Shown here: positions 30,762 through 54,643 of the stretch, in pieces | Numbering within the stretch: the stretch's first letter is position 1 | Layout: each line of letters starts with the position of its first letter | DNA from: Longimicrobiales bacterium | GTDB lineage: Bacteria; Gemmatimonadota; Gemmatimonadetes; Longimicrobiales; RSA9 | Assembly (NCBI GenBank): GCA_035513345.1 | Contig: DATKCF010000045.1 | Coordinates: 1-55,643 of the forward strand | Direction: 5' to 3' | Length of the DNA: 55,643 bases | Program-made: the position numbers and the translations under genes | Notes under the pieces: generated by a model | The model's input: the letters and a program-made list of their open reading frames with translations, nothing else | The model's database searches: none | Told to the model about the DNA's origin: nothing

Positions 30762-31141
30762 CAGGTTTCCGGGGGCTGGTTTCTGGTCACGTTTCTGGGG
30801 CTCGTTTCTGGGGCTGGTTTCTGGGGTGCGGGCCGGGCGGTGTTCCGGTGGCACCCTCCCCCCCACCTCGCGAACCATCTTCGCATCCGGTCAGCCGGAT
30901 CGGCCGGACCGGCACCGAATTCCCCGATCAGCGCACCCCAAGCTAGCACCAGGAACCGGCACCGGAAACCTGCACCAGACACGTTTCTGGGGCTGGTTTC
31001 CGGGGTTCGCGCCGGGCGATGTTCCGGCGCCACACGCCTCCCCGTCTCGCGAAGCATGTTCGCAGTCGGTCAGCCGGACCGGCACCGACTTCCCTGATCC
31101 GCGGACCCCGGAAAGAGCCCCAGAAACCAGCCCCAGAAACG
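30762..31141. mobile_element. Two tandem MITE-like elements (~150-160 bp each, ~75% identical cores) with 24-bp terminal inverted repeats cgtttctggggctggtttc(c/t)gggg, plus 12-mer (gtttctggggct) expansions
   Basis: Copy 2 spans 30982..31141. Left TIR 30982-31005; right TIR 31118-31141 is its exact reverse complement bar 1 mismatch. Copy 1 spans ~30791..30975 with the same left TIR (30803-30826), extra 12-mer repeats, and a degenerate right TIR. Non-coding, in a divergent intergenic region. Confidence 0.6.
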
Positions 31142-31147
31142 TTTCGA

Positions 31148-31188
31148 AAAAAACGTGTCGAAACGTGTCGAAAAACGTGTCAGACGCT
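31148..31188. repeat. Short direct repeats aacgtgtcgaaa (x3) in an A-rich segment upstream of the BNR-protein gene
   Basis: gtttcgaaaaaaacgtgtcgaaacgtgtcgaaaaacgtgtcag. Unusually AT-rich for this genome, ~130 nt upstream of the start at 31318. Confidence 0.45.
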
Positions 31189-31317
31189 GGCGCGAACCAT
31201 GTCCACGATGGTCACTTGCCACACCCGCGGTGGCAGCGCAGTTTGCACGTCAGGAACGGGCCCGCCGCCCGCGGTGCGGGCCAACGTAACGAATCTCTCG
31301 GTTCAGAGGTTTCCGCC

Positions 31318-34300
31318 ATGCGACGTCGTGTCCTCGTCCCCGCTCTTGCGCTCCTCGCTGGTGCCGTCCATGACGCGGCGGCTCAGCAACCCCTGATGCA
31401 GTCGGTCGATCCGGCCCTGTTCCGGGGCCTCGAGTACCGACTCGTCGGCCCGTCGCAGGGCGGCCGCGTGAACACGGTGACCGGCGTACCTTCGCAGCCG
31501 AACACGTTCTACATGGGCATCGCCAGCGGCGGCGTGTTCCGCACGACGGACGCCGGCGAATCGTGGGTCCCGATCACGGACGGCCAGGTACCGGTCGCGT
31601 CGGCCGGCGATGTCGCCGTCTCCCTGTCGGATCCCGACATCATCTATTTCGGCACGGGCGCCGACGGCATGCGCAGCAACGTCTCGACCGGCCGCGGCGT
31701 GTACAGAACGACTGACGGCGGCGACACGTGGTCGTTCGCCGGACTCTATGACGTCGGGCAGATCGGCGCTCTGCGCATTCATCCGACGAACCCTGACATC
31801 GTCTGGGTCGCCGCCGGTGGCGATGCGTTCAGAAAGTCGCACGACCGCGGCATGTACAAGACTGTGGACGGCGGTCAGACGTGGCGCAGGACGCTTTTCC
31901 TCGCCGACAGTATCGGCGCGATGGATGTCGAGTTGATGCCGGGCAATCCGGATGTTGTCTACGCCTGGATGAACCGCATCGAGCGCAAGCCGTGGACAAT
32001 CATCAGCGGCTCGCGCAGCGGCGGCTTCTACAAGAGCACGGACGGCGGCGAGACGTGGCGCAACATCACGAACGGATTGCCGACCGGCCTCATCGGCAAG
32101 GGCAACCTGGGTACGACGGCGGCGAACCCGCAGCGTATCTATGCGCTGGTCGAGGCGTCGCCGGGAGGCGGCGTGTACCGCTCCGATGATGCGGGCGAGT
32201 CGTGGCAGTACGTCAATGATGACGGCGCGCCCGTGCAGAGGCCATTCTACTACACGACGCTCGGCACCGACCCGACGAACGCGGACGTCGTCTATGTTGG
32301 CGCCGAGACATTCTTCCGGTCGACCGATGCCGGTGTCACGCTCACCCGCATGACGTTGCCTCACGTCGACCACCACTCGATCTGGGTCAGCCCGCACGAT
32401 GGCAATCTGATGATTCAGGCCAATGACGGCGGCGCCAACGTGTCGTTCGACGGCGGCAACACATGGAGCACGCAATACAACCAGCCGACGTCGGAGCTGT
32501 ACGGCGTCTGGCTGGATGACGCGTTCCCGTACAACCTGTACATGGCGCAGCAGGACGATGGCACGCACATCCTGTCGATGCTGGCGGACGGCGGCGAGCG
32601 CGGTGTGGACTGGTTCAGCGGACCCGGCTGTGAGACCGGCCCGCTGCTGCCGCACCCGACGAGACCCGAAATCGTCTATGGCTCGTGCAAGGGTCAGTAC
32701 CAGTATCTGAACCGCGCGATGGATCAGACGCGCAACTACTGGGTTGGCGGGCAGTCGCTGTACGGCAATCCGGCGAGCGACCTGATCCTGCGGTTCCAGC
32801 GCGTATCACCGATGGAGGCGTCACCGCACGACCCTGACGTGCTGTATTACGGATCGCAGCACGTACACCGGACGCGTGACCTCGGCGCGACGTGGGAGAC
32901 GATATCGCCCGACCTGACGTGGAACCCGGAATGCTGCCAGGGCGTGAGTGGCGAACCGATCACGCGCGATGTCACGGGCGAGGAGTTCTACAGCGCGCTG
33001 TACGCGATCCGCGAATCGTTGCATGAACCGGGTGTCATCTGGGTCGGCTCGAATGATGGACCGTTCCACATCACGCGCAACAACGGTCTCGAGTGGACGG
33101 ACATCACACCGCCCGACCTGCCCGAAGGCGGCCGCGTCCAGTTCATCGAGCCGTCGCCTCACCGGCCCGGTTCCGCGTACTACGCCGTGCACCGGTTCCT
33201 GCTCGGCGACTACACGCCGTACATCTACCGGACGGACGACTACGGTCAGTCGTGGCAGCTGCTGACGGACGGCACGAACGGCATTCCGGAGGATTGGCCG
33301 ACGCGGGTGGTACGCGAGGATCCGGACCGCGAGGGTCTGCTGTATGCGGGCACGGAGTTCGGCATGTTCATCTCGTTCGACAACGGCGCCAACTGGCAGC
33401 CGTTCCGACTGAACATGCCGCACGTCCCGATCTCCGACATGAAGCTCAAGAACAAGGATCTCGTGGTCGTGACGCAGGGCCGCGGTGCGTGGATCCTCGA
33501 CAACGTGTCCTCGCTGCATCAGATCGGTCCGCAGATCAACGCGAACGAGCCGCACCTCTATCGTCCGCGTGACGGATACCGCACACGCACCGGCACAAAC
33601 ATACTCGGTCCGAATATTGACTACCATCTGCCGGGACCACCCACCGTCGGTGTCTCGATCGACATTCTCGATACGGCCGGCGCCGTCGTGAACTCGTACC
33701 GCAGCACGTCGGGCACGGCCGCGGCGGCAGGCCGCGGACGTGGAGGTGATGCGGGCGCGATGGGCGGCCGCGGACGTGGCGGTCGCGGCGGATCCGGCGC
33801 TGCTCCGTCGGTGACTCCTGACGCGGGCCACAACCGGTTCGTCTGGAACGCCATGCACTCGAACGGCCTGTTCGCTCCGCCCGGCGCCTATCACGTGCGC
33901 CTCACGGTCGGCAACCGCACGTTCACGCAGCCGTTCAACATGGTGATCGATCCGCGGCTCGAGGCCGAGGGCATCAGTGCGGCCGATCTGCGCGAGCAGT
34001 TCGACCACAATACGCGGATGCGCGCGATGGTCGAGGAAGTCAATGCGCTCGTTCAGCGCGTGCGCAACGAACAGACGCGGCTCGAAGGCGGGGCCGGCCA
34101 GGATGCGCAGCGGAAGCGGCAGATCGATGCGTTGGTCGACCAGCTCGTCGCCGGTCCCGTCCGCTACTCCGCACCCGGCCTGCGCGACCATATCCAGTAT
34201 CTCGCAGGCATGACCTCGCGCGGTGACCAGAAGGTCGGCAACCAGGCCACCGAGCGGTACGCCGTGCTGCGCTCCGAACTCGATCGTATCAGGGCCGAAG

Positions 34301-34329
34301 TCGATCGCCTGCTTGGTCCCGGAGGTTGA
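31318..34329 (+). CDS. Secreted BNR/Asp-box repeat protein with two beta-propellers (sortilin/VPS10-like, GH74/xyloglucanase-like fold), ~1003 aa, with Gly/Arg-rich low-complexity segment
   Basis: The start is at the ATG at 31318 (MRRRVLVPALALLAGAVHDAAAQ, signal peptide). The ORF-track upstream extension to 30826 runs through the MITE repeats. It has multiple S-x-D-x-G-x-T-W motifs (TTDAGESW, TTDGGDTW, TVDGGQTW, STDGGETW, SDDAGESW, SFDGGNTW, TRDLGATW, TDDYGQSW). Confidence 0.8.
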   Translation: MRRRVLVPALALLAGAVHDAAAQQPLMQSVDPALFRGLEYRLVGPSQGGRVNTVTGVPSQPNTFYMGIASGGVFRTTDAGESWVPITDGQVPVASAGDVAVSLSDPDIIYFGTGADGMRSNVSTGRGVYRTTDGGDTWSFAGLYDVGQIGALRIHPTNPDIVWVAAGGDAFRKSHDRGMYKTVDGGQTWRRTLFLADSIGAMDVELMPGNPDVVYAWMNRIERKPWTIISGSRSGGFYKSTDGGETWRNITNGLPTGLIGKGNLGTTAANPQRIYALVEASPGGGVYRSDDAGESWQYVNDDGAPVQRPFYYTTLGTDPTNADVVYVGAETFFRSTDAGVTLTRMTLPHVDHHSIWVSPHDGNLMIQANDGGANVSFDGGNTWSTQYNQPTSELYGVWLDDAFPYNLYMAQQDDGTHILSMLADGGERGVDWFSGPGCETGPLLPHPTRPEIVYGSCKGQYQYLNRAMDQTRNYWVGGQSLYGNPASDLILRFQRVSPMEASPHDPDVLYYGSQHVHRTRDLGATWETISPDLTWNPECCQGVSGEPITRDVTGEEFYSALYAIRESLHEPGVIWVGSNDGPFHITRNNGLEWTDITPPDLPEGGRVQFIEPSPHRPGSAYYAVHRFLLGDYTPYIYRTDDYGQSWQLLTDGTNGIPEDWPTRVVREDPDREGLLYAGTEFGMFISFDNGANWQPFRLNMPHVPISDMKLKNKDLVVVTQGRGAWILDNVSSLHQIGPQINANEPHLYRPRDGYRTRTGTNILGPNIDYHLPGPPTVGVSIDILDTAGAVVNSYRSTSGTAAAAGRGRGGDAGAMGGRGRGGRGGSGAAPSVTPDAGHNRFVWNAMHSNGLFAPPGAYHVRLTVGNRTFTQPFNMVIDPRLEAEGISAADLREQFDHNTRMRAMVEEVNALVQRVRNEQTRLEGGAGQDAQRKRQIDALVDQLVAGPVRYSAPGLRDHIQYLAGMTSRGDQKVGNQATERYAVLRSELDRIRAEVDRLLGPGG

Positions 34330-34413
34330 TCACGGCGGGGTTCAGCCATTGACGGGAGAGAGCCGATCCTCTAGTGTGGTGCTCCGACACCATACCGGAA
34401 TGACGACGTGAGA

Positions 34414-34491
34414 ATGCACTCGAGCCAGTACGCCATTTCCTATTATTACGCGACCCGAGCCACGGGCCGCGGTGAGAGGCGTATGCGCTGA
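34414..34491 (+). promoter_or_regulatory. Putative tyrosine-rich leader peptide ORF (MHSSQYAISYYYATRATGRGERRMR), part of a candidate attenuator for phhA
   Basis: The ATG at 34414 (weak gaga RBS), 25 codons, 4 Tyr codons including three consecutive (tat tat tac at 34441-34449, an AT-rich island). Stop at 34489-34491. Confidence 0.4.
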
Positions 34492-34519
34492 GTGCACTGA
34501 CCCTCGAACGACCGTAGCG

Positions 34520-34553
34520 GCGGCCCGTGGATCTTCCACGGGCCGCTTTTTTT
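34520..34553 (+). terminator. Rho-independent terminator (gcggcccgtgg-atctt-ccacgggccgc + T7), 23 nt upstream of the phhA start codon
   Basis: Perfect 11-bp GC-rich stem followed by ttttttt. The 3' arm sequence ccacgggccgc is duplicated at 34460-34470 inside the leader ORF, which allows an alternative (antiterminator) pairing with 34520-34530. Confidence 0.8.
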
Positions 34554-34576
34554 GCGTCCCTTACCGCGAGGAACAG

Positions 34577-35314
34577 ATGGATGCGACAGCGAATGCGGAT
34601 GCCGACTTCTTCACCGCCCAGGACTGGTCGGCGTACACGGATGAAGACCACGAGGTCTGGGGCATCCTGTATGAACGGCGGATGCAGCAGCTCGAGGAGA
34701 ACGGCAGCCGGCTGTTTCTCGATGGCGCGGCCACGATCGAGCTGCGCCGGGACCGTGTCCCCGATCTGGCCGAGGTCAACGCCAGGCTCGGACCGCGGAC
34801 AGGCTGGAACGCGGTTCCGGTCAGGGGCTTCATTCCGGCGCACGAGTTCTTCACGTGCCTGTCGCAACGACGTTTTCCGACGACCGTGATCGTTCGCTCG
34901 AAGGAGCAGCTCGACTACTTGCCGGAGCCGGACATATTCCATGACGTCTTCGGTCACGTTCCGCTCCACGCTGACCCGATGTTCGCGGATTTCCTCCAGC
35001 GATTCGGCAGCGTGGCCGCGCGCGCACGTACGCCGGACGAAACCGCTCAGATGGCACGTCTGTTCTGGTTCACGGTCGAGTTCGGACTGATCCGCGAGGC
35101 GGGTGACGTGAAGGTCTACGGCAGCGGCCTGATCTCGTCGCACGGCGATGCGGCGAATGCGCTCGGCCCGGCATGCGAACGCAGGCCGTTCGACCTCGAT
35201 GGCGTCATCGGCCAGCCGTTCGAGATCGACCGGTTCCAGGACGTGCTGTTCGTGGTTGACGCCTTCGATCAGCTGTTCGAGGCGGTGTCGGCGATGGAAC
35301 GGCGGATCGCGTGA
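34577..35314 (+). CDS. phhA: Phenylalanine-4-hydroxylase (aromatic amino acid hydroxylase, bacterial PhhA type)
   Basis: 'PEPDIFHDVFGHVPL' and 'FWFTVEFGL' iron-binding motifs. ~245 aa. Start at the Met at 34577 with gagg upstream. The overlapping antisense ORF 34289..35143 was rejected. Confidence 0.9.
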   Translation: MDATANADADFFTAQDWSAYTDEDHEVWGILYERRMQQLEENGSRLFLDGAATIELRRDRVPDLAEVNARLGPRTGWNAVPVRGFIPAHEFFTCLSQRRFPTTVIVRSKEQLDYLPEPDIFHDVFGHVPLHADPMFADFLQRFGSVAARARTPDETAQMARLFWFTVEFGLIREAGDVKVYGSGLISSHGDAANALGPACERRPFDLDGVIGQPFEIDRFQDVLFVVDAFDQLFEAVSAMERRIA

Positions 35315-35326
35315 AGCGCGCCCGAC

Positions 35327-36655
35327 TCAGTGGCGGAATCGCGCGACGATCCACTCGGAGATCATTGACAATGCCGTGGGCGAGAATGTTTCCTCGATCG
35401 ATGCATACTCGGCTGGCACGCCGAGCGTCGCGGTCTGGAACAGGTGGTTCAGGCCGGCCAGCTCGTGGACCGCCACATCGCCGTTGCCGGCCCGCTCGAG
35501 CGCGGCTTCGATTTCCGGCAGGTTCTGTTCCGGCGGGACCTGGAGGTCGAGTGATCCGTTCAGCGCGAGGACGGGCACCCTGACGGCCTCGAGCGAGGGT
35601 CGCGGATCGTAGCGCAGGAAGTTGCGGAACCAGGGTGACGTCACCTGGCGGATCTGCGCGTCAGTGTACGCGTCGATCTGTGCTTCGGACGTCCCGATCG
35701 CGGCCCGCTCGGCGGCACTCGCCGAATCGATCGCGGATCGCAGGACTTCGCGCAGGCGCCGGGCAGTCGTTGCTTCGTCCTCATCGGCGCGTAACACATC
35801 GTGTACCCGGCGCTGCGTTGCGAGCGAGCGCGCAATCATCTCCTCGCTGGCGCCGCTCGCACGCGAGACCTTCTCGATCTGCGCCAGCAGGATCTCCTCA
35901 CCCGGGACGCCGGGCCCCGCGAGCAGAACGATCCAGGCGACACCTTCGGATTGGGCGGCTGCCGCCGGCGCGACGAGCCCTCCCTCGCTGTGCCCGATCA
36001 GGCCCACCGCGTCAGCATCGATGTCCGGCCGGCCGCGCAGGTACTCGGTGGCGGCGAGCGCGTCCGTCACGAAATCGGCGGTCGTCGCGGTCGCGAAGTC
36101 GCCTTCGGAGCCGGCGACGCCGCGGTCGTCGTACCGTAGCACCGCGATGCCGTTGCGGGTCAGATGGTCCGCCAGAACGAGGAACGGCTTGTGTCCCATG
36201 AGCGACTCGTCACGATCCTGCGGCCCCGATCCGCTGACGAGCACGGCCGCCGGGTGCGTGCCCGGCAATCGTGGCTTCGTGAGCGTGGCGGCGAGTGTAA
36301 TGCCGGCTGCCGCGTTGTGGAACGTGACTTCCTCGGTGTCGTATGGCAGCGGCCCGGTCGGCTCCTGCGGCCTTGGCTGGCGAGCTGGCACGTCACCCTT
36401 CGTGATCTCGAGCGCGAGCGTCATTCCGCCCTGCCTGAACTCACCGGCGAACTTCGTACTGTCCGCCGAAAGCGCGGCATCGTACTCGACGCCCAGGCCG
36501 TTGATCCGGACCTTCAGCGAATCGCCGGTAAACGTCACTTCGTCGAGCGGGATGCCGGTCGCACCCTGGTTCGGGCTGTCCAGCGTGCCTGTCAACGCGC
36601 CCGAACTGTCCGCCGCAAAATGGAAAACGAGCGTCAGACCGGGTCCGGCCGGCAA
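35327..36655 (-). CDS. Alpha/beta-hydrolase (S33/S9-like, GHSEGG nucleophile elbow) with N-terminal lipocalin-like beta domain. Read from a TTG at 36655, it has no signal peptide. See the in-frame upstream signal-peptide ORF 36701..36799.
   Basis: 'VGLIGHSEGGLVAPAAAAQ' nucleophile motif and a C-terminal 'LNHLF' His region. An upstream in-frame 33-codon ORF (ATG 36799, RBS gggagg) encodes 'MGKRIVHALLTTAAVFAPTAIITMTTVLLPSPA' followed by TGA (36698-36700), and then continues in the same frame into this CDS. Confidence 0.75.
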   Translation of the reverse strand: MPAGPGLTLVFHFAADSSGALTGTLDSPNQGATGIPLDEVTFTGDSLKVRINGLGVEYDAALSADSTKFAGEFRQGGMTLALEITKGDVPARQPRPQEPTGPLPYDTEEVTFHNAAAGITLAATLTKPRLPGTHPAAVLVSGSGPQDRDESLMGHKPFLVLADHLTRNGIAVLRYDDRGVAGSEGDFATATTADFVTDALAATEYLRGRPDIDADAVGLIGHSEGGLVAPAAAAQSEGVAWIVLLAGPGVPGEEILLAQIEKVSRASGASEEMIARSLATQRRVHDVLRADEDEATTARRLREVLRSAIDSASAAERAAIGTSEAQIDAYTDAQIRQVTSPWFRNFLRYDPRPSLEAVRVPVLALNGSLDLQVPPEQNLPEIEAALERAGNGDVAVHELAGLNHLFQTATLGVPAEYASIEETFSPTALSMISEWIVARFRH

Positions 36656-54499: not shown

Positions 54500-54643
54500 A
54501 GCATTGCCAGTCGGTGACGCCCGGCCGAGCCGGACCGTCACCCGAGCCAGCAGTGGCTCCGGGTGATCCGATTGGAACGAAAGGCGGGCCGCGAACTCCC
54601 GAGGCCCGCCTTTCGTTTCGCGGGGGGAGTACGGCGCCGTCTA

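Follow-up and report, generated by a model that had tools for sequence, protein, structure and literature searches.

Ribosome-mediated attenuators of Escherichia coli and Salmonella, such as trpL, hisL, pheL, thrL, leuL and ilvL, combine a short open reading frame (ORF) containing clustered codons for the end product with four RNA segments that form the mutually exclusive 1:2, 2:3 (antiterminator) and 3:4 (terminator) pairings. In these systems, the terminator is thermodynamically stronger than the antiterminator and the decision is hence a kinetic one; read-through at the trp attenuator depends on a kinetic trap, and the codon run of leuL makes use of rare synonymous codons. Here, we analyzed a 55,643-nt contig of a Longimicrobiales bacterium (Gemmatimonadota; DATKCF010000045.1), referred to as the window. 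Its intergenic region at 34330-34576, located between a BNR/Sortilin-domain gene and the phenylalanine 4-monooxygenase gene phhA, harbors an element that resembles the enterobacterial attenuators in all of these features and that is an uncatalogued member of this classical kind. With a probability of roughly 85%, we interpret it as a ribosome-mediated leader-peptide transcription attenuator which senses charged tRNA-Tyr and gates transcription into phhA.

The element also differs from its enterobacterial counterparts. It shows no sequence or covariance-model similarity to the leader families of Rfam, it would sense Tyr, and its target is phhA and not a gene of the chorismate pathway. In addition, most members of the Gemmatimonadota family to which it belongs appear to be translated without a 5' untranslated region (5' UTR). 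To our knowledge, the enterobacterial attenuators for different amino acids are not clear sequence paralogues, unlike the members of the Gemmatimonadota family. The leaderless polycysteine upstream ORFs of mycobacteria are likewise short ORFs at the 5' end that are rich in a single amino acid, sense its supply and attenuate the operon; they act mainly by coupling translation to the transcript and are not known to possess a canonical alternative terminator. In contrast, the Gemmatimonadota element has a canonical terminator and antiterminator, and the window copy is not leaderless. The aroR leader of Corynebacterium glutamicum, which is located upstream of aroF, reportedly contains mixed aromatic codons and controls DAHP synthase, and thus parallels the sister elements upstream of DAHP synthase, chorismate mutase and tyrA described below. 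As in actinobacterial attenuators (PMC1262725), aromatic amino-acid biosynthesis outside the Proteobacteria would here be under leader-peptide control; the actinobacterial case, compared by description only, concerns a different phylum and involves neither phhA nor a Tyr-only leader.

In Pseudomonas, phhA is regulated in another way. The phhABC operon of this genus is catabolic and is activated by PhhR at a sigma-54 promoter (PMC1173090). The window phhA encodes an enzyme of the same family but follows the opposite logic, as it is monocistronic and predicted to be induced by Tyr shortage. Genetic fitness data, which concern no regulatory element, have assigned the phenylalanine hydroxylases (PAH) of Dyella, Legionella and Echinicola a biosynthetic function, the formation of Tyr from Phe, and Echinicola possesses a prephenate/arogenate dehydrogenase alongside PAH (PMC7311316). 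Two routes to Tyr may similarly exist in Gemmatimonadota, where both are placed under Tyr-rich leaders; here the evidence is the regulatory wiring only.

The leader ORF of the window comprises 25 codons on the plus strand, from an ATG at 34414 to a TGA at 34489-34491 (MHSSQYAISYYYATRATGRGERRMR), and is conserved in relatives. Four of its 25 residues are Tyr, encoded by TAC 34429, TAT 34441, TAT 34444 and TAC 34447 (34429-34449), and the three consecutive codons lie within a stretch of only 20% GC (34435-34449). The ORF is followed on the same strand by an intrinsic terminator (34519-34553), composed of region 3 (GCGGCCCGTGGA, 34520-34531), a TCT loop, region 4 (TCCACGGGCCGC, 34535-34546) and a run of seven T residues (34547-34553). 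Its stem of 12-13 bp (13 pairs, 10 of them GC) has a predicted energy of -27.8 kcal/mol, and the T-run ends 23 nt before the ATG of phhA at 34577. Within the ORF, region 2 (CCACGGGCCGC, 34460-34470, plus strand) is an exact copy of the 3' arm of the terminator and can pair with 34520-34530 to form the antiterminator, a helix of 11 bp, all Watson-Crick, whose complementarity can be extended to 14 nt at 93% (34457-34470 with 34520-34533). Exactly three copies of the 11-mer exist in the 55.6-kb window: those at 34460-34470 and 34536-34546 on the plus strand, and the reverse complement at 34520-34530. The expectation by chance is 0.17, and none of 100 shuffled sequences reached three copies. The fold of 34380-34556 is also unusually stable compared with shuffled sequences (z = -5.6). 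The original prediction, which had been made from the sequence alone, had named the terminator and its distance to phhA, the ORF with its AT-rich island of Tyr codons and the duplicated arm, all of which were confirmed; its genomic GC content of 70% was too high, as 66% was measured for the window overall.

To determine the distribution of the element, 80 genome loci were fetched by PhhA protein alignment only, with no reference to the leader. Searches with nhmmer and blastn using the intergenic region of the window yielded matches directly upstream of phhA in Gemmatimonadota loci. In total, the element was present directly upstream of phhA in 15 of the 18 Gemmatimonadota loci and in one metagenome-assembled genome (MAG) labelled Thermoanaerobaculia (L021), and a covariance model scored 15 loci at 52-113 bits, all of them directly upstream of phhA. 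The order of parts is the same throughout: a start codon, a Tyr cluster (YYY, YxYxY or similar), a CACGGGCC-like segment and a stop codon are followed by a spacer of 30-50 nt, a GGCCCGTG...CACGGGCC terminator with a T-run and the ribosome-binding site of phhA. The element was missing from three Gemmatimonadota phhA loci (L003, L010 and L011), from a MAG labelled Phycisphaeraceae (L017), and from all 58 acidobacterial or planctomycete phhA loci. In these element-free acidobacterial and planctomycete loci, phhA is often located 3' of HPPD, which is a catabolic context. In five Acidobacteriaceae loci (L035, L039, L053, L068 and L071), an HPPD-like C-terminus (...FGKGNFKALFEAIEREQ..., identified by eye) directly precedes phhA, and neither a leader nor a terminator is present before phhA, in contrast to the Gemmatimonadota. 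In the locus labelled Thermoanaerobaculia (59.6 bits), the Tyr leader and the terminator before phhA are clear but no antiterminator is convincing; the copy may have degenerated, been acquired horizontally or come from a Gemmatimonadota contig that was mis-binned.

PhhA identity among the homologous loci ranges from 58% to 97%, hence these are not assembly or binning duplicates of a single sequence. The upstream neighbors vary between loci and include genes for a BNR protein, a methyltransferase, an FlgD-like protein and tRNA-Gly; as the upstream genes differ, the element travels with phhA. Closer relatives obtained by exact protein look-up (L201-L206, PhhA 82-97% identical, alignment A4) have retained the ORF; its TAT to TAC and ATT to ATC changes are synonymous, and a change of A to G in region 2 preserves a G-U pair. 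The leader and its alternative pairing are, therefore, conserved upstream of phhA in related taxa, in loci collected independently of the leader.

An equivalent leader ORF was found in 15 of 15 phhA-anchored genome loci and in the closer relatives. Over the 16 phhA-anchored leaders, Tyr accounts for 56 of 439 residues (12.8%) compared to 1.9% in the adjacent phhA (binomial P ~1e-28), and Phe for just 3 of 439. The synonymous choice is shifted as well: the TAT:TAC ratio is 26:30 (46% TAT) in these leaders and 5:65 (7%) in phhA (Fisher P = 5e-7), with 19:68 in six genes of the window. Enrichment of the rare synonymous codon at the sensing position is expected of a device that reads tRNA charging. 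The lack of Phe codons in the phhA leaders makes physiological sense, because induction of PhhA during Phe shortage would be harmful.

Further members of the family were obtained by scanning metagenomes with the pattern ACGGGC-N40-65-CGGCCCGTG-N3-12-CACGGGCCG, which includes neither Tyr codons nor any phhA sequence. Of the 120 pattern matches, about two thirds displayed the full architecture, and covariance-model scores separated true members (at least 65 bits) from plain terminators with the same hairpin (at most 36 bits). The codon run of these elements corresponded to the gene downstream. Leaders with Thr runs (MTNAAIRTTGTTTTTTTRLTGR...) were located before ThrA (aspartokinase-homoserine dehydrogenase) in 3/3 cases, and leaders with Phe runs and no Tyr (...RFAFAFFFGFVTRTTGR...) before chorismate mutase and/or prephenate dehydratase (3/3 distinct leaders), while one leader with a His run (MKRTSTLHRHHAHHGRTGR...) preceded HisG. 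Twenty distinct leaders with 23% Tyr, 7% Phe and occasional Trp preceded DAHP synthase, chorismate mutase and TyrA (PDH_N and PDH_C domains), and 27 distinct leaders with 19% Tyr and 0.6% Phe preceded PhhA. In three loci, the leader and phhA form an operon with DAHP synthase and chorismate mutase. This exchange of codons is the strongest evidence that the codon run acts as the sensor and the scaffold as the switch, and the sister elements would place phhA among the Tyr-biosynthetic genes. Together with the conservation and the codon statistics, they support the original prediction of a Tyr-sensing, ribosome-mediated attenuator of phhA and, by the same three lines of evidence, of a biosynthetic function of PhhA in converting Phe to Tyr.

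Among the sister loci, L100, L115 and L122 have 230-300 nt between the attenuator terminator and phhA, with DAHP synthase and chorismate mutase directly after phhA. In L166, L152 and L196, Tyr/Phe-rich leaders precede an operon encoding DAHP synthase (with an FXD domain), chorismate mutase and prephenate/arogenate dehydrogenase (TyrA). Judged by sequence, tyrA would therefore be attenuated in Gemmatimonadota, which is unusual beside the control by TyrR in Enterobacteria. The original prediction had assumed that tyrA-type genes are not usually attenuated and had regarded a canonical tyrA as speaking against the attenuator. Related Gemmatimonadota do possess a canonical tyrA, itself preceded by a Tyr-rich leader belonging to this family, and its presence does not refute the attenuator. 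Because of this canonical tyrA, PhhA probably provides a second route to Tyr and not necessarily the sole one. In the His-type element (L193:470-660), the leader is MKRTSTLHRHHAHHGRTGRDGGV, the promoter ends 7 nt 5' of its ATG, and HisG follows. In Rfam, this element matched the Pseudomonas small RNA P17 below threshold (36.5 bits against a gathering score of 45, E = 8e-6), and likewise the Burkholderia RNA BcKCsr2; P17 and BcKCsr2 might themselves be his-leader-like RNAs.

In addition to the terminator and the antiterminator, three helices are predicted in the window leader. In the minimum free energy structure, the outer helix P1 (34428-34439 with 34474-34484; GTACGCC.TTTC with GAGAGGCGTAT) encloses the Tyr codons together with P2, a local hairpin (34449-57 with 34463-71; -12.1 kcal/mol) that corresponds to the 1:2 pairing, or anti-antiterminator, and sequesters region 2. 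A small hairpin on the plus strand (34484-34496; TGCGC-TGA-GTGCA; -4.1 kcal/mol) holds the leader stop codon in its loop, and similar stop-codon hairpins were recognized by eye in many homologues. The pairings were evaluated on two alignments: A3, made with MAFFT from sequence only, comprises 77 distinct elements, and A2 is an unbiased set of 16 sequences. On A3, 67.7% of the cells were paired for P1, 81.9% for P2 and 95.5% for the terminator, compared to 37-45% in slid controls. Changes on both sides occurred in five of six P1 pairs and in six terminator pairs, and overall in 14 of 26 pairs over P1, P2 and the terminator; none of 500 shuffles reached the observed values. RNAalifold on the 77-sequence alignment returned the terminator only, and P1, P2 and the antiterminator were specified by hand and tested by pair counts.

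The antiterminator cells were paired at 90% in A3 and 85% in A2, with 30-49% in slid controls. Most antiterminator columns of A3 are fixed by the search pattern; one pattern-free position covaries (CG 27, UA 11, UG 3) in at least two lineages. In A2, the support comes from complementarity that has been conserved, not from compensatory changes. In 14 of the 16 loci, the most stable partner of region 3 anywhere in the leader is the region-2 site, located within the ORF 3' of the regulatory codons. In L013 (CACGGGGC) and L014 (CCGCGGGTC), the leader copy and both terminator arms are altered together.

The window transcript was then folded from the putative start at ~34384, with masks representing the ribosome footprint. 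Without a ribosome, P2 was formed (8/8 pairs) once region 3 appeared, the antiterminator was absent (0/11) and the terminator then formed. Placing the ribosomal A site on any one of these Tyr codons, of which there are four, gave a complete antiterminator (11/11), in line with the earlier proposal that a ribosome stalled at the Tyr codons frees region 2. Of 16 full-length leaders, all paired region 2 upstream before region 3 exists, 13 still sequestered it once region 3 had been made, and 13 switched to the antiterminator with a ribosome on the last Tyr codon. The locus hence displays a leader ORF with its own start and stop codons, clustered Tyr codons, a terminator before phhA and, computationally, an antiterminator which excludes the terminator and depends on ribosome position, albeit with weak covariation in A2. 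The regulatory amino acid, Tyr, is the product of PhhA, and the sister elements show a corresponding match.

According to this model, transcription would start in the intergenic region, and the short leader ORF would be translated while RNA polymerase advances. When Tyr-tRNA is plentiful, the ribosome would clear the Tyr codons and region 2 would be recaptured behind it by P2 and P1, so that region 3 pairs with region 4 and the terminator and its T-run release a transcript of ~170 nt before the ribosome-binding site of phhA. When Tyr-tRNA is scarce, a ribosome stalled with its A site at 34429 or 34441-49 would cover the 5' strands of P1 and P2; the freed region 2 would pair with the emerging region 3, the terminator would come too late and polymerase would read into phhA. 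PhhA would then turn Phe into Tyr, and phhA would be wired as a Tyr-biosynthetic gene. Termination had originally been attributed to occlusion of region 2 by a ribosome at the stop codon. This step is not compatible with the geometry, as a ribosome with its A site at 34489 trails at ~34474 and leaves 34460-34470 uncovered. Unlike in trp, the leader stop lies 18 nt beyond region 2, so that a terminating ribosome leaves region 2 unmasked. The occlusion step was therefore replaced, and termination is probably restored by refolding of P2 and P1 behind the ribosome.

A putative promoter was found upstream of the leader on the plus strand (-35 TTGACG at 34349-34354, a 17-nt spacer, -10 TAGTGT at 34372-34377), and it is kept in the relatives L201 and L203. 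A strict sigma-70 consensus scan called no promoter; the proposed site corresponds to a looser motif and is suggested by its conservation. The motif TTGNNN-N16-18-TANNNT occurs upstream of 36 of the 77 family members, and in 33 of these 36 the -10 element ends 5-10 nt before the leader ATG, most commonly 6 nt. A -10 element so near the ATG places the transcription start at or next to it, and most homologues, therefore, appear to translate the leader without a 5' UTR. The promoter-like site of the window lies 36 nt 5' of the ATG at 34414. The intervening region contains a 5' UTR of ~30 nt (34384-34413, plus strand), which according to alignment A4 is an insert of the window lineage with a small hairpin and a mini-ORF (ATGACGACGTGA, 34400-34411) whose stop codon overlaps the starts GTG 34408 and ATG 34414. 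The ~30-nt insert (34378-34413 region) is common to the window, L201 and L203 and is missing in L205 and L206, in which the leader ATG is located 7 nt past the -10 element, appears leaderless and aligns with the window GTG at 34408. By this alignment, translation of the leader may actually begin at the in-frame GTG (34408).

Since a promoter-like site precedes the leader, expression of phhA need not depend on the BNR gene. Simple co-transcription of phhA with the BNR gene had been named as an outcome that would speak against the attenuator; the site at 34349-34377 and the varying upstream genes do not point to such an arrangement. In a clade with leaders of the type MxxxRxYAYSYRPTR[VIL]TGRRRG, only 3-12 nt separate the end of a tRNA-Gly(CCC) gene from the leader ATG, and the leader has no visible promoter of its own (L004:2740-2825, L005:1606-1682, L135 and L191, as well as L133 and L141 by sequence). 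In this clade, co-transcription with the tRNA followed by processing of the tRNA 3' end may leave the leader effectively leaderless.

Several points weigh against the interpretation as an attenuator. Two of the leaders, L008 and that of the Thermoanaerobaculia-labelled MAG, lack a convincing antiterminator, and covariation of the antiterminator in A2 is not significant (4 cells, 3 pairs; matched or exceeded in 41-109 of 500 shuffles). Even when a ribosome is stalled, the full-length RNA favors the terminator over the antiterminator by ~8 kcal/mol, so that read-through must rest on a kinetic trap. Among 5'-truncated leaders, the antiterminator was favored without a ribosome in 51 of 76 sequences. 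We treated this as an artefact of truncation, as full-length leaders behaved as expected, but the preference of the truncated leaders indicates that the sequestering fold is only marginally favored and that the energies are finely balanced. The window copy is, furthermore, unlike most homologues: its 5' UTR spans ~30 nt, and the start codon is preceded by no more than a weak GAG resembling a Shine-Dalgarno motif. Initiation on the window leader is for this reason less certain and the least secure link in the model. Finally, we infer leader translation, the transcription start, termination, the Tyr response and the kinetic order of folding from the features observed in the sequence and how well they are conserved, from the correspondence of codon runs to the genes that follow, and from the alternative folds that were predicted.

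Among the alternatives, the one that survives best, albeit as an unlikely one, is that the ~170-nt RNA is primarily a trans-acting small RNA or a dual-function RNA and peptide, similar to rnTrpL/peTrpL of Sinorhizobium, and that its position before phhA is incidental or secondary. The promoter-like site, the strong terminator, the unusually stable fold (z = -5.6) and a scaffold sequence more conserved than terminator function requires would be consistent with such an RNA, and two reports provide a precedent in which attenuator RNAs and leader peptides act in trans (PMC7968998, PMC7298713). However, the element is always located directly upstream of, and co-oriented with, an amino-acid biosynthesis gene, with the terminator 20-40 nt before the ribosome-binding site of that gene. 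The codon run is the sole part that varies systematically and it tracks the downstream gene, and an ORF whose start, stop and codon bias are conserved would not be needed in a trans-acting RNA. A trans role alongside attenuation is possible.

The structured, conserved 5' leader with its mutually exclusive terminator and antiterminator could in principle be the expression platform of a riboswitch or T-box-like RNA that binds tyrosine, a pterin or uncharged tRNA-Tyr directly, in which case the ORF would be irrelevant. This is very improbable, since the conserved core is identical in the Thr, Phe, His and Tyr versions and cannot, therefore, carry ligand specificity. Specificity resides instead in runs of identical codons within the ORF and not in a single specifier codon, the synonymous variation between TAT and TAC suits decoding rather than a fixed RNA pocket, and no match to the T-box covariance model was obtained in Rfam for the window element (E <=10) or for seven homologues and sister elements (E <=1). 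We consider it just as improbable that the small ORF encodes a functional Tyr-rich micropeptide, regulatory or modified, in place of a sensor. Nearly all members keep a ...T-G-R... frame across region 2, and the C-terminus is rich in Arg, as might be expected of such a peptide, but the N-terminal halves are unrelated save for the codon run, whose amino acid changes with the downstream gene. In L007, L090 and L188, CACGGGCC is read in another frame, so that the constraint there acts on the nucleotides, and the conserved peptide positions are exactly the paired RNA segments.

Least probable of all is that the hairpin is the terminator of the BNR gene, the small ORF and the 11-mer being due to chance and phhA being expressed constitutively by leaky read-through or from an unrecognized promoter: the same CGGCCCGTG/CACGGGCCG arms do occur in ordinary terminators and about one third of the pattern matches scored at most 36 bits, but the hairpin lies 190 nt past the BNR stop codon and beyond the promoter-like site, the element accompanies phhA whatever the upstream gene, and neither the triple occurrence of the 11-mer (expected 0.17) nor the Tyr enrichment (P ~1e-28) suits chance. 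A reversed, tnaC-like logic was ruled out by the sister elements, which control biosynthetic genes with the same scaffold.

The neighborhood of the element in the window is simple. The BNR/Sortilin-domain gene (30826-34329, plus strand) ends with its stop codon at 34327-34329. The phhA gene (34577-35314, plus strand) encodes a protein of 245 aa with a Pfam Biopterin_H domain (3.4e-47), which is 100% identical to the protein of a Longimicrobiales MAG (Gemmatimonadota) on the same contig as the window. A Shine-Dalgarno motif, GAGGA (34568-34572, plus strand), was read from the sequence upstream of phhA; it is kept in alignment A4 and lies outside the terminator hairpin. Directly 3' of phhA follows a convergent alpha/beta-hydrolase gene (35327-36655, minus strand), so that phhA is monocistronic and the sole gene under control of the leader in the window. 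No phhB/PCD domain, phhC operon or regulator gene was found among the immediate neighbors of phhA, and these neighbors do not form a catabolic phh cluster of the PhhR/TyrR type, in which a phhA operon with phhB/phhC is accompanied by a divergent activator.

Covariance model R1 identified no second attenuator in the window and nothing new flanking phhA in the genome loci or in 55 metagenome loci. Its sole other match in the window (54504-54617; 18.8 bits, weak) was rejected as a plain bidirectional terminator. The segment at 54560-54620 contains a GC-rich hairpin (GAACGAAAGGCGGGCC...GGCCCGCCTTTCGTTTC) with T-runs on both strands and looks like such a terminator.

Searches against Rfam returned no family of any kind for the region (E <=10), and no leader or T-box family for the whole window (gathering thresholds) or for eight homologous and sister loci (E <=1). 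The literature searched, whose coverage is incomplete, contained no attenuation in Gemmatimonadota, no Tyr-codon leader peptide and no attenuator or riboswitch before phhA. If the interpretation is correct, the element would, as judged by this literature and Rfam 15, be the first described Tyr-specific leader-peptide attenuator and the first attenuation system reported for the Gemmatimonadota, a phylum with almost no characterized gene regulation. The element and its sisters are missing from Rfam, and a covariance model would help to annotate many MAGs.

On balance, we lean towards the view that the family derives from one Gemmatimonadota chassis, consisting of P1/P2, region 2, the stop-codon hairpin and the terminator, which was copied and, by exchange of the codon run (Tyr, Tyr/Phe, Phe, Thr or His), directed to five or more pathways, and which is mostly leaderless, either through a promoter ~6 nt before the ATG or, in one clade, through 3' processing of tRNA-Gly. 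If so, the chassis would be a naturally programmable leader-peptide sensor, and PhhA and aroF-chorismate mutase-tyrA would form a two-branch Tyr regulon. The natural series of codon swaps on a constant and mostly apparently leaderless scaffold would be convenient for studying how the decision to terminate arises from the position of the ribosome, and the family would be a template for the design of amino-acid sensors. For the organisms themselves, the regulatory wiring, beside the attenuated aroF-chorismate mutase-tyrA, provides independent evidence for a Tyr-biosynthetic function of PhhA, an enzyme usually annotated as catabolic, and this assignment would improve the metabolic reconstruction of these abundant soil bacteria.

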